Positions 18,301-30,300 of a DNA stretch of 64,000 nt are shown here, piece after piece; the stretch's first letter is position 1; each line of letters starts with the position of its first letter. Under the pieces are notes generated by a model. The model did no database searches and was not told the origin of the DNA. It saw only the letters and a program-made list of their open reading frames with translations. This stretch comes from Eledone cirrhosa (Eukaryota): contig OZ024761.1 of the NCBI GenBank assembly GCA_964016885.1, forward strand, positions 11,160,001 through 11,224,000, given 5' to 3'. Made by a program: the position numbers and the translations under genes.

Positions 18301-21300
18301 TTAGTGTTTTGTTAGTTACTGGTGACAATATGTAATATTTCCCTCGCTCGTTACTTTTTTGTTATTTACTAGTTTCAATCATTTGACAGCAGCCATGAAA
18401 AGAAGGGAAACTATAGAGGGTGGTTTTAGATGTACAAACTGAGAGATAGGGAGTCTGTATATATGCTGAGAGATAGGGGCTGTATATAGACAGAAGAGAT
18501 AGGGACTGTATATGTGCTGAGAGATAGGGGCTGTATATAGACAGAGAGATAGGGGCTGTATATATAGACAGAAGGAGATAGGGACTGTATATATAGACAG
18601 AAGAGATAGGGGCTGTATATAGAGACAGAAGAGATAGGGGCTGTATATAGAGACAGAAGAGATAGGGGTTGTATATAGACAGAAGAGATAAGGGCTGTAT
18701 ATAGACAGAAGAGATAAGGGCTGTATATAGACAGAAGAGATAAGGGCTGTATATAGACAGAAGAGATAGGGGCTGTATATAGACAGAAGAGATAGGGGTT
18801 GTATATAGAGACAGAAGAGATAGGGGCTGTATATAGAGACAGAAGAGATAGGGGCTGTATATATAGACAGAAGAGATAGGGGCTGCATATATAGACAGAA
18901 GAGAAAGGTCTGCATGGAGACAGAAAAAAAAATGGGTTTTTATCAGCTGAGAAAGCCCAAGTTTACCTGGTGGCATATCAAATATGTTGTCTTCACTGAG
19001 ACTTTTCATCAGTTCGGGAAGTTCCCTACACAAATGAATACCAGCATCATCCATTGCAGTGTAACCCCCTCTCTGTTGGTAGCGGAATTTGACATTATTG
19101 GGGTTAGCTTTCGCAGCAGACGATATCAAATGTAAACGTAAAATCTCGGTTAACGTGAAACTGTCCAACTGCAAGTTCCTCAATGGGGTACCTAGACAAT
19201 AATATAAAAAATGGAGACATTTACGTTAGTCTACAGATGATGAGGTTGAATGTTAAAAGAAGAGATAGAAACATTCATGCCACGATAAATATAACACCCA
19301 GTCCACTCTATAAAGTGGTAGTGCTGGTGTCATGATAAATATAACACCCAGTCCACTCTATAAAGTGGTAGTGCTGATGTCATGATACATAACACCCAGT
19401 CCACTCTGTAAAGTGGTAGTGCTGATGTCATGATAAATAATACCCAGTTCTCTCTATAAAGTGGTAGTGTTGGTGTCATGATAAATAGCACCCAATTCTC
19501 TCTGTAAAGTGGTAGTGTTGGTGTCATGATACATAATACCCAGTCCACTCTGTAAAGTGGTAGTGTTGGTGTCATGATACATAACACCCAGTCCACTCTG
19601 TAAAGTGGTAGTGTTGGTGCCATGATAAATAGCACCCAATTCTCTCTGTAAAGTGGTAGTGTTGGTGTCATGATAAATAATACCCAGTCCACTCTGTAAA
19701 GTGGTAGTGTTGGTGCCATGATAAAATAGCACCCAGTCCACTCTATAAAATGGTAGTGCTGGTGTCATGATAAATAGCACCCAGTCCACTCTGTAAAATG
19801 GTAGTGTTTGTGCCACGACAAATTATACAGAATGTAAACAAAGCATCAATCATATTCACGAAGCTTTGAGCAAATTCTGAATTAGGGGCTAGTGCGGCAC
19901 ATCACACAACTATATAATTTAGGGGCCTCTGTGATACTGTTCACCTACATATATAATGGTATGATATAGCAAACTGTTTCCTGTCAAGTTTTCTATATAA
20001 ACACAACCTGACTGTGACTGGCCTCACATATCAAACAACAACAATAAACTGGTTGAAATGTTACCTACCGTGGGTTAACATCGGGTATTGTACCATGATA
20101 GCAGATTTCTTTAATAAATTCGCCATTGAACGATCAGAATAACACATTTCATCACTGAAATCTACAGAGAAACAAGACAACAAATAAATATATATAGATA
20201 TGTTTCCACACTGTAAATGTGGTTGGTGCTAGGAAGGGCATCCAGCCGTAGAAAACCTGCCAGATAGTCCTATATGAGCGAGACACGGTCACCCGACCAG
20301 CATTGCCTCAAGTGGGACAACTCCCGTCTACCCCCATGCTAGCGTGGAAAATGGACGTTAAATGAAGATGATGATGATGATAATGATGATACATGTGTGT
20401 ACATGCATGAATATCTATATACACACATATTTAACCCAATATAGGTCCCACCCGATCCTCCCACTGTGTAGGTGACAACAAAAAGCATCCAGTCCACACT
20501 GTAAAGTGGTCGTATAGGTAACATGGTAAAAAGGCTCCCAGTCCAAACTGTAAAGGTGGTTGGTGTTAGGAAGGGCATCCAGCCATAGAAAACCTGCCAG
20601 AGAGACGGTCTCCCGACCAATCCTCCATCAAATGGAACAAAATCGTCTAACCCATGCTAGCGTGGAAGACGGACGTTAAACGATGAAGATGATATATATA
20701 TATAACATCTCTGTCTGATGACCAATCCAGACGTATATTATTATTGTCTGGGATCCAGAAACCTTTGGTAATGGAGTAGTTATATATTGTGTCGTTCCCT
20801 TTCTAATTAAATAGCTCTGTTCCATATATAGAGCACTCTTTTTTCCTTTGCTTTTTCTTCGGAATTACCAAAAATTTTTATATATATATATATTGGGTCG
20901 TCAAGTATGAAATTTGTAGGAAAAAAAACATGACCATATGCCTCACTACAAATTTCATACTTGACCCAACACACACACGTGTGTGTGTGCGTGTGTGCGT
21001 GCGTGCATGCGTGTGTGTGATATATATTAGTAAAAGTAGAAGATCACCCACGAGCTCAGCAGTTTCAGCGAGTTACCTCTGAAGAACTCCACCCTTAAAA
21101 ACAAATTTGACTCTTTAGCATTTACATTACTCTATATATACTGTTGTATTTTCACAGTAAAGTCTTTACTTCACATAATATCTCACATAACATTTACATT
21201 ACTCTATATATACTATTGTATTGTCACAGTAAAGGCTTTACCTCACATAACATTTACATTACTCTATATATACTATTGTATTGTCACAGTAAAGGCTTTA

Positions 21301-27300: not shown

Positions 27301-30300
27301 TCTCTCCGGCCAACAACTGGTCCCCTTTTTCAAATACCATTTTAAAAGAAGGATCAGAATGGAGAGAGAGGTGCTCTACCCCAGCAAGTTTTATGAAAGG
27401 TGGGTGAAAGTAGGGAGAATGGCCAGAGTGAATGGGTCTTCTCTCTATATCAGCCTGTAGGTGAAAGAAGAGGAAAAAGAGGAGACGAGGGAAGCACCTA
27501 CTCTTTGTGCTCCTGAGGAGAAGGGTTACACATTTTTTCCGGGGTGTGTGCGACCCATGTTAATGCCCCCTCCCTATTGAGGACTTCGTTTGTTGTTGTT
27601 ATTTCATTGTTATATTTTTGTACTCGTTAATTATATGTAAACTTCCCCCCTTGTATCTGTCCCTACCTTTTGTGCCCTAGTGGCAAATAAAGAAACCACT
27701 CTATATATACTATTGTATTTTCACAGTAAAGGCTTAACCTCACATAATACCTCACATAACATTTACATTACTCTATATATATTGTTGTATTTTCACAGTA
27801 AAGTCTTTACTTCACATAATATCTCACATAACATTTACATTACTCTATATATATTGTATTTTCACAGTAAAGTCTTTACTTCACATAATATCTCACATAA
27901 CATTTACATTACTCTATATATACTATTGTATTGTCACAGTAAAGGCTTTACCTCACATAACATTTACATTACTCTATATATACTATTATATTGTCACAGT
28001 AAAGGCTTTACCTCACATAACATTTACATTACTCTATATATACTATTGTATTGTCACAGTAAAGGCTTAACCTCACATAACATTTACATTACTCTATATA
28101 TACTATTGTATTGTCACAGTAAAGGCTTTACCTCACATAACATTTACATTACTCTATATATACTATTGTATTGTCACAGTAAAGGCTTTACCTCACATAA
28201 CATTTACATTACTCTATATATACTATTGTATTGTCACAGTAAAGGCTTAACCTCACATAACATTTACATTACTCTATATATACTATTGTATTTTCACAGT
28301 AAAGGCTTTACCTCACATAATACCTCACATAACATTTACATTACTCTATATATACTATTGTATTTTCACAGTAAAGGCTTTACCTCACATAATATCTCAC
28401 ATAACATTTACATTACTCTATATATACTATTGTATTTTCACAGTAAAGGCTTTACCTCACATAACATTTACATTACTCTATATATACTATTGTATTTTCA
28501 CAGTAAAGGCTTTACCTCACATAACATTGAATCTATGAGATTTTGATATTATTTATTTTGAGTTTGAGTGGCCAGTTACGGCCAGTTCGAACTGAAAGAG
28601 GTGAGAGAATACTGGCCGGATACAGCCGGTTTAAATGCTGGGTTAAAACAAGAAGAAGACCAAAACTGTTTCAGAATATTTACCAGGAATGTGAGTTTTT
28701 CCTTTACTTAAATCAGGATCTTCCTCTTCCTCTTCAGACTCTTGCAGATAAAAAATGGCAACCAACAGCATGAGGAGGAGATCAGTGAGAGGCCCATTCA
28801 CATCATTATCCAGTAATGCTTCCTCCAACACCTCTGAACAGACAGGGACAAAAATGGAAATAAAATAAAAATGAGGGCCATAAAGCTAAACCATTTATGA
28901 TCCCATATTCCCAGAATAACCCTTAATATATGGGACACTATGTCCCACCAACCAGGTAGAATACACCCCTAATATATGGGACAATATGTCACACCAACCA
29001 GGCAGAATAAACCCCTTATATACGAGACACTATGTCACACCAACCAGGTAGAATAAACCCCTAATATATGGGACAATATGTCACACCAACCAGGCAGAAT
29101 AAACCCCTTATATACGAGACAATATGTCACACCAACCAGGTAGAATAAACCCCTAATATATGAGACACTATGTCACACCAACCAGGTAGAATAAACCCCT
29201 AATATATGAGAAATTATGTCACACCAACCAGGTAGAATAAACCCCTAATATATGGGAAACTATGTCACACCAACCAGGTAGAATAAACCCCTAATATATG
29301 AGACATTATGTCACACCAACCAGGTAGAATAAACCCCTAATATATGGGACACTATGTCTCACCAACCAGATAGAATAAACCCCTAATATAAGGGACACTA
29401 TTTCCCACCAACCAGGCAGAATAAACTAATATATGGGACATTGTCACACCAACCAGGCAGAATAAACCCCTAATATATGGGAAGCTGTCCCACCAACCAG
29501 GCAGAATAAACCCCTAATATATGGGAAGCTGTCCCACTAACCAGGTAGAATAAACCCCCAATATATGAGACATTATGTCACACCAACCAGGTAGAATAAA
29601 CCCCTAATATATGGGAAGCTGTCCCACCAACCAGGTAGAATACACCTCTAATATGTCACCTTATATTCTACTAAGAACACCACCCCAACGTTTTTTTAAC
29701 AAGAATAAACCCCTAATATACAGGATGCTGTGTCCTTCTCATCAGAATACCACCCTTAATTTATGACCCTATATTTGAACCCAAATACACCCCTAATCTG
29801 TGACAATGTTCTATTAACAAGAATACACTCCCAATATGTGACCTCATCGTCTATCAACAACAATACCATCCCTATGTTCTATCAACAATGATTGTTATAG
29901 TTTTGTTTGATATTACAGCTCATACTTAGAAGTAGATAGGTAAGTTGGTAGATAGGTAGGCAGGCAGGTAAGACAATCAAGGATTTCAAAAGTAATTAAT
30001 TCATGACTCACCTAATGTCATACCAGAAGGAAAATATTCATTTAAATCAAACAAACTCTGGAATGTATGGATAAATTCAAGCACCATCAATGCATCACCG
30101 AATAATTCTTGTGGGAGTCTGGTTTGTACAGGTAAAAGATCAGGTAACGACTGAAATATACAGGTAAATTATTGAGGTTAATATTCAGGGATACAATAAT
30201 TAATCATAATTAACAACATGATGAAATGTTTTACTGTTTATTAGATGAAATTGATTGAACCCTGGACATCTGCTCTGAGAGTTCAAACTCCACGGAGGTC

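Follow-up and report, generated by a model that had tools for sequence, protein, structure and literature searches.

Did the intact long interspersed nuclear element (LINE) that lies inside the tandem repeats of a miniature inverted-repeat transposable element (MITE) in Eledone cirrhosa reach this place by choosing its target, by being carried as DNA or by chance? The locus belongs to a stretch of 64,000 nt (GenBank assembly GCA_964016885.1, contig OZ024761.1, positions 11,160,001 to 11,224,000 of the forward strand), which is called here the window and to which all coordinates refer. The favored reading, with a probability of roughly 0.62, is that the LINE arrived by its own site-directed retrotransposition into the minisatellite of a piggyBac-type MITE, in the manner of Tx1L into Tx1D. 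A site preference of the family as a whole, with enzyme-directed and homology-directed routes counted together, is held with greater confidence. The parts of the locus are as follows.

21107..21128, forward strand: array-side terminal repeat of the host MITE and its damaged TTAA site (TTGA-CTC where the intact form is TTAA-CCC)
21129..22069, forward strand: left minisatellite array with 15 unit cores of 60/72 bp, the last being a 72-type unit cut after CATAACAT
22070..22279, forward strand: 5' untranslated region (UTR) of the LINE, with several short hairpins
22280..24001, forward strand: open reading frame 1 (ORF1), 573 aa, stop-free, with a CCHC knuckle at 308
24023..27460, forward strand: ORF2, 1145 aa, stop-free, with an apurinic/apyrimidinic endonuclease (APE), a reverse transcriptase (RT) and a C-terminal CCHC
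27673..27697, forward strand: 3' terminus of the LINE, consisting of a short stem, a 5-nt loop and AGAAACC, without poly(A)
27698..28527, forward strand: right minisatellite array with 13 unit cores, in the same order of unit types as the left array
28528..28646, forward strand: unique arm of the MITE, its terminal repeat (3 nt missing) and TTAA

The initial annotation had described a 5.6-kb LINE with two stop-free ORFs between arrays of one 60/72-bp minisatellite, and this was borne out by the reading of the window, where an intact APE-type element was delimited at 22070-27697 on the forward strand. ORF2 gave Pfam matches to Exo_endo_phos, RVT_1 and zf-RVT, with the catalytic motifs present, and human L1 ORF2p was its best solved relative (E 1e-52). 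In ORF1, the CCHC motif itself was present, while the zf-CCHC match (E 0.0068) fell under the curated Pfam cut-off. The central part of this protein resembled clusters of RNA-binding/CCHC retroelement ORF1 proteins, with atlas scores of 0.89-0.92 to CCHC and ZCCHC3-type clusters, which serve as leads only. A separate ORF1 with an RNA-binding region and a CCHC knuckle is typical of Tx1. Both ORFs share one frame, divided by a single TAG and seven codons (23999-24025), and read-through or reinitiation between them is possible. No second fragment of the LINE was found elsewhere in the 64-kb window.

The empty site reads CATAACAT-TTACATT-ACTCTAT, and in the filled site its central TTACATT is missing. 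No target-site duplication (TSD) was found at the LINE ends, the insertion being accompanied instead by this 7-nt loss; alternatively, the junction can be read as a 65-nt duplication with 2 mismatches. Variant empty sites observed in other sequencing runs likewise held about 7 letters between both junction points. The minisatellite itself consists of tandem copies expanded from the sequence that adjoins one MITE end on its inner side, and it occupied 3389 of the 58372 non-LINE bases of the window (5.8%). Hence, a single insertion alone would amount to no more than chance, and the caution of the initial annotation that one insertion cannot prove specificity and that a chance hit was feasible was well placed.

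Four of 18 sequencing runs (X2, X5, X6, and X8) were compared with 22040-27727 at 85% likeness, using a reference that carried only 30 nt of flank on each side of the LINE. In X2, the ORF1 contigs had a depth of 1959-2244 and 3 differences in 913 nt, and the diverged contigs of that run had a depth of 7-19; although contig depth is no copy number, the LINE appears to be a young multicopy family there. Among the 32 records listed, four reached a LINE end, three of which continued into the repeat at the junction seen in the window and none into other sequence. Record 9 of X5 and record 17 of X6 started at 22040 and were aligned end to end, thereby including 30 nt of 72-type repeat to the left of the LINE. 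Record 16 of X5 extended 22 nt past the 3' junction and stopped just short of 27720, a base that is dimorphic (T/G) among the repeat units, as would follow from the presence of copies in units of either type. The fourth, record 24 of X6, stopped 2 nt before the LINE end.

The LINE sequences of X5 and X6 were 99.5-99.7% identical to that of the window, at depths of about 10 and about 4.6, corresponding to 0.2-0.5% of that in X2. These two runs are labelled as two other organisms and hold little repeat relative to their RT depth; they are most simply read as sparse samples of an A-like genome, every read having a different copy as its origin. The probability that a single locus would yield a junction contig was 0.00004-0.06 per junction, for X2 single-copy depths of 7-100 and with the assembly taken to use 150-nt reads, 31-mers and at least two reads. 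Therefore, several loci are likely to share the exact LINE/repeat junctions. The exact phase and strand of the junction correspond to approximately 0.04% of the window positions. If X5 and X6 held a true transferred composite, the link to the repeat would again not be due to chance, yet carriage of the LINE by the MITE would then be favored. In X8 (organism E), a related LINE of about 87% identity, including ORF1, was detected together with abundant repeat. The proposal that the LINE targets the MITE repeat gained real but indirect support from the recurrence of the same junctions in X5 and X6 contigs.

The relative ages of guest and host were then compared at the locus. The LINE differed by 0.3-0.5% from its family, and the host MITE arm showed 3-5 non-CpG differences in 53-55 nt with respect to three other copies. 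The host ends lie at 21111 and 28642, where the initial annotation had placed them; both, however, are damaged, the left by its TTGA-CTC and the right by the loss of 3 nt. Two unit variants were observed to the left and to the right of the LINE (3 and 3 times for one, 1 and 2 times for the other) and in neither of the other arrays, which indicates that both flanks stem from one resident array. Since the MITE ends are broken, the arm is older than the LINE and the unit variants are specific to the locus, this copy of the LINE entered a resident MITE that was probably already immobile. Cut-and-paste hitch-hiking, which had also been suggested, would leave undamaged termini and an arm no older than its cargo; neither was found for the copy at 22070-27697, and its transport by the MITE is unlikely.

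Nevertheless, several points weigh against site-directed arrival. A second filled locus was not seen whole in the contigs of the four runs, and the junction records, with 30, 30 and 22 nt of flank, all fall short of the 31 letters on both sides by which bridging is defined. Contig depth cannot be converted into copy number. The 32 records listed leave aside 110020 pieces as well as 5687 loose ends and 1281 joints, where other flanks may exist, and none of the listed records from X2 or X8 reached a LINE end. The depth was flat from 5' to 3' (10.2 and 12.2 in X5, 4.6 and 4.8 in X6), and the two 5' contigs carried an identical 72-type flank, a type found at only 14 of the window's 40 sites; this pattern of depth and flank would also result if all copies descended from one composite. 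A short interspersed nuclear element (SINE) sharing the LINE 3' tail is dispersed, with only 1 of its 11 tails inside the repeat, which is within chance. The sparse-sampling view of X5 and X6 is drawn from repeat-to-RT depth ratios. As a yardstick, a Tx1 family has been taken as target-specific when >20% of its flanks were of one sequence type (PMC4494074; this and the other papers given by identifier are cited for the available parts of their text).

The alternative that survives best, although an unlikely one, is that an ancestral LINE-in-MITE composite multiplied as DNA, by piggyBac transposase acting in trans, gene conversion between arrays or horizontal transfer, so that the junctions are shared by descent. 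It would account for the flat depth and the identical left flanks of X5 and X6, and for the presence of near-identical LINE copies in two runs that carry the labels of other organisms and contain little repeat. Short piggyBac-class elements have, moreover, been recently active in Octopus vulgaris, with 474 insertions (PMC13282606, Table 1; the piggyBac total is printed as 3,666,023 bp, but 366,023 bp, or about 770 bp per insertion, follows from the subtotal). A hint of array exchange was also obtained from the unit cores, which were 95-96% alike between loci (arrays 13187-13906, 21129-28527, and 45558-46323), compared with 85-90% for the arm cores and 79-87% for single-unit copies; this contrast is weakened by the many arm differences at CpG sites, CpG decay accounting for part of it. 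The state of the host MITE argues against such a composite, with both ends broken, an arm far more diverged than the LINE and locus-specific unit variants on both sides, as does the stop of the X5 3' contig at the dimorphic base.

A second alternative, quite unlikely and framed from sequence features, is that the transcript begins and ends inside a donor array, and that the repeat-bearing RNA or cDNA finds other arrays by base pairing. For this, loose T/A specificity of the endonuclease would suffice, and a block of units would be duplicated if annealing took place at a distant unit. The fixed 72-type left flank together with mostly full-length copies, the lack of poly(A) and the endonuclease hairpin loop, which in the alignment is as short as that of human L1 and shorter than the 11-residue loop of Tx1L, are consistent with this route. 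So are the 28 units of the host array, compared with 10 and 12 in the other arrays, and the recurrence of the unit-type order across the LINE, as if an array block had been duplicated around the insertion; a staggered 5' joint could give this order, as could unequal exchange, and one locus does not decide between them. By contrast, no ribozyme or Rfam match supported it at the 5' junction: no Rfam family was detected in 21000-28800 at E up to 1, and a rough descriptor of our own for a hepatitis delta virus-like ribozyme gave 0 matches in the LINE 5' region (5 of 60 shuffles gave one). Pairing between the LINE head and the left flank was better at phases 6-12 nt off, and 3-7% of random flanks equalled it. 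A predicted fold in which the LINE head pairs with the left flank (z -2.93, 0 of 200 shuffles) was dropped as support after these phase and random-flank controls.

Finally, it is very unlikely that a non-specific LINE favoring short ATT/ACT-like sites hit an abundant repeat by chance, since, even with a repeat covering 5.8% of the window, a dispersed tail-sharing SINE that ends in (ATT)n and most contig ends lying outside the 32 records listed, the junction contigs of two runs would have to stem from this one locus, which is improbable at their depth.

Under site-directed retrotransposition, the ORF2 endonuclease would place a bottom-strand nick at 5'-GAGT/AATG-3', immediately inside the stretch that stems from the terminal repeat. 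The 3' end released in this way would prime reverse transcription where the RNA ends in AGAAACC, and the LINE 5' end would be attached 7 nt upstream, in most cases after a unit of the 72 type. An array that is abundant, dispersed and non-coding would offer a low-cost target. Strict specificity of the enzyme for this site is not assured, because the predicted hairpin loop is of L1 length and shorter than the 11 residues of Tx1L. A bolder proposal, decidedly unlikely, is that a cephalopod L1/Tx1-like site-specific family duplicates target blocks and thus grows its own piggyBac-derived minisatellite, while 3'-tail recognition by the same lineage drives an abundant dispersed SINE.

In the Xenopus system, the Tx1D insertion site lies inside internal tandem repeats and Tx1L makes a TSD, whereas here the host is a mollusc and 7 nt of the target are lost. 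The likeness to Tx1L/Tx1D (Tx2L/Tx2D) of Xenopus laevis consists in an APE-type LINE within a non-autonomous piggyBac family (PMC4494074, PMC1950540, PMC6719617). Tx1L-EN nicks almost only its target (PMC1950540), and both the specificity of Tx1L and the idea of a safe haven are confirmed in the literature (PMC1950540, PMC6719617). The bases after the nick are AGTT for Tx1L (PMC1950540) and would be AATG here; the endonuclease loop is shorter in the Eledone element, whose site is a candidate from sequence alone. By analogy, the LINE seems to work like Tx1L, which implies no clade placement relative to Tx1L, Keno, Kibi or Koshi. In a quick tree of 105 rows, its RT fell in a 14-row clade (support of 100 in the Shimodaira-Hasegawa-like approximate likelihood-ratio test, SH-aLRT) in which the one row with an organism name came from Acanthosepion pharaonis; no row of this tree carried a Tx1 label. 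A cuttlefish protein (52%) was likewise the one entry with an organism name among the 120 RT relatives listed.

Three vertebrate cases of Tx1 elements targeting DNA transposons have been described, namely Tx1 in the piggyBac Tx1D, Tx1-Mar in Mariner-N4_AMi and Tx1-9_AMi in Harbinger (PMC4494074). The two crocodilian families, Tx1-Mar with SINEU and Tx1-9_AMi, resemble the present one in that a LINE prefers an old, abundant DNA transposon and a SINE is associated (PMC4494074). Here, however, the targeted sequence is a minisatellite that developed out of a piggyBac end, and the SINE has the 3' tail in common with the LINE but is dispersed, whereas SINEU has the target in common (PMC4494074). The association is therefore less singular than the initial annotation had implied; for molluscs, such a habit would be new. 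No report of the LINE/MITE pairing was found in the literature, with Repbase, subscription journals and the supplements of PMC4494074 outside the scope, so that invertebrate Tx1 cases may have been missed; the available parts of PMC8967140, PMC10294476, PMC4758252, PMC3747384, and PMC5753468 contained no mollusc case of such targeting. Young L1-Tx1 elements of O. vulgaris are of similar size, 13 families with 421 near-full-length insertions having a mean of about 5.4 kb compared with 5.6 kb here (PMC13282606, Table 1), and neither a target nor nesting is mentioned in the available text of that source ("nested" and "satellite", 0 occurrences, PMC13282606).

Metagenome and viral contigs were also searched. 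The 71 metagenome loci with LINE relatives were distant (best segment 23-50%), the repeat pattern was present in 0 of these 71, and blastn of the head, tail, unit, arm and piggyBac relic against them gave nothing. The exact 31-nt pattern of the LINE 3' end had 0 matches in metagenome contigs, and no relative of the LINE was found in viral contigs. U2 small nuclear RNA (snRNA) genes were present in 3 of 20 scanned metagenome LINE loci (L008:5815-5977, L004:4675-4885, and L044:20-1847), and L008 and L054 had downstream sequence in common, suggesting insertion in a U2 array spacer. This U2 association of distant LINEs was not used, L004 and L008 lying outside the clade of the window LINE and L044 being too short for the tree.

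Furthermore, the last 25 nt of the LINE matched 10 other window positions, on both strands, without gaps at 17 or more letters (17-18 of 25). Nine of these 10 best matches belonged to a single SINE family, of which they formed the 3' end; all stood in register with the LINE terminus and preceded (ATT)n. The SINE tails were located at 38951, 35648, 2419, 43112, 39715, 2164, 2046, 1402, 39053, and 1660 on the reverse strand and at 34908 on the forward strand. The nine tails represent one family, hence one event, which was found after the fact. The common part is a short stem-loop (3-4 bp stem) followed by AGAAAC, with one compensatory change that was reached by 47 of 500 shuffles. The SINE head is tRNA-like, with A- and B-box-like motifs judged by eye, and no tRNA gene was called in it by ARAGORN. 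This resembles stringent SINE-LINE pairs, with their common 3' end, stem-loop and compensatory change (PMC3747384), although only 25 nt, a 3-4 bp stem and one covariation event are involved here. The shared tail suggests that the LINE lineage may mobilize this SINE family. Additionally, the summed contig depth in X2 stood at about 9800 at 27561 and reached about 105000 at 27645; by this rise, many more elements have the last part of the LINE 3' UTR in common.

The remaining MITE copies and the related piggyBac relic of the window are listed below.

13058..13906, reverse strand: LINE-free MITE copy with a 10-unit array
about 30472: sixth MITE fragment, with a single diverged unit
36447..37924, reverse strand: internally deleted piggyBac relic with TTAA on both sides (relic 36451-37920) and a transposase fragment at 36974-37690
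39727..40124, forward strand: single-unit MITE copy with one diverged unit, its array-side end lost, and a 44-bp tandem expansion in the arm
42925..43302, reverse strand: single-unit MITE copy with one diverged unit and an inserted SINE with TSD
45555..46454, forward strand: LINE-free MITE copy with a 12-unit array

The initial annotation had counted four LINE-free copies sharing the arm. Arrays were present in two of them (13058-13906 and 45555-46454), but those at 39727 and 42925 carried only a single diverged unit. The SINE in the latter lies at the phase of the LINE 3' junction or 3 nt before it, in the same orientation. TTAA sites and CCC...GGG inverted ends were seen across the MITE copies, every one of which has at least one damaged end. 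The transposase fragment of the relic comprises 238 codons and matched DDE_Tnp_1_7 (E 2.3e-20). The 3' end of the relic was identical at 17 of 18 nt to the intact MITE array end (at 13906), and at the arm end the first 8-9 nt agreed. Because its ends match those of this transposase-bearing, TTAA-flanked relic, the MITE is, as judged from these sequences, of piggyBac type, as had been proposed, and the relic is likely kin of its autonomous partner.

In the copy at 39727..40124, a 44-bp arm segment has grown to 6 tandem copies (39828-40105); by this expansion, the MITE seeds more than one minisatellite. Another tandem array, whose 48-bp unit includes a piggyBac-like end (TTAA-CCCTT), was observed at 10095-11008, and single ends related to it occur at 12958 and 33842.

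The LINE and its host MITE lie in an intron of a BAZ1A-like gene, between mapped exons at 18965-19165 and 30013-30156, and the LINE is antisense to the gene, whose best matches were from molluscs. These matches and the cuttlefish RT relative agree with a mollusc, probably cephalopod, host. Another intron of this gene holds a 61-bp tandem array with 68 copies and 95% matches (46763-50854).

If confirmed, site-directed arrival would extend the targeting of DNA transposons by LINEs from vertebrates to molluscs, with a target once more derived from piggyBac. For studies of how such enzymes become specific, the LINE would provide an APE endonuclease that is young and intact and for which a candidate site is defined. 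Moreover, the common 3' tail names this LINE as a candidate driver of an abundant SINE family in the E. cirrhosa genome.

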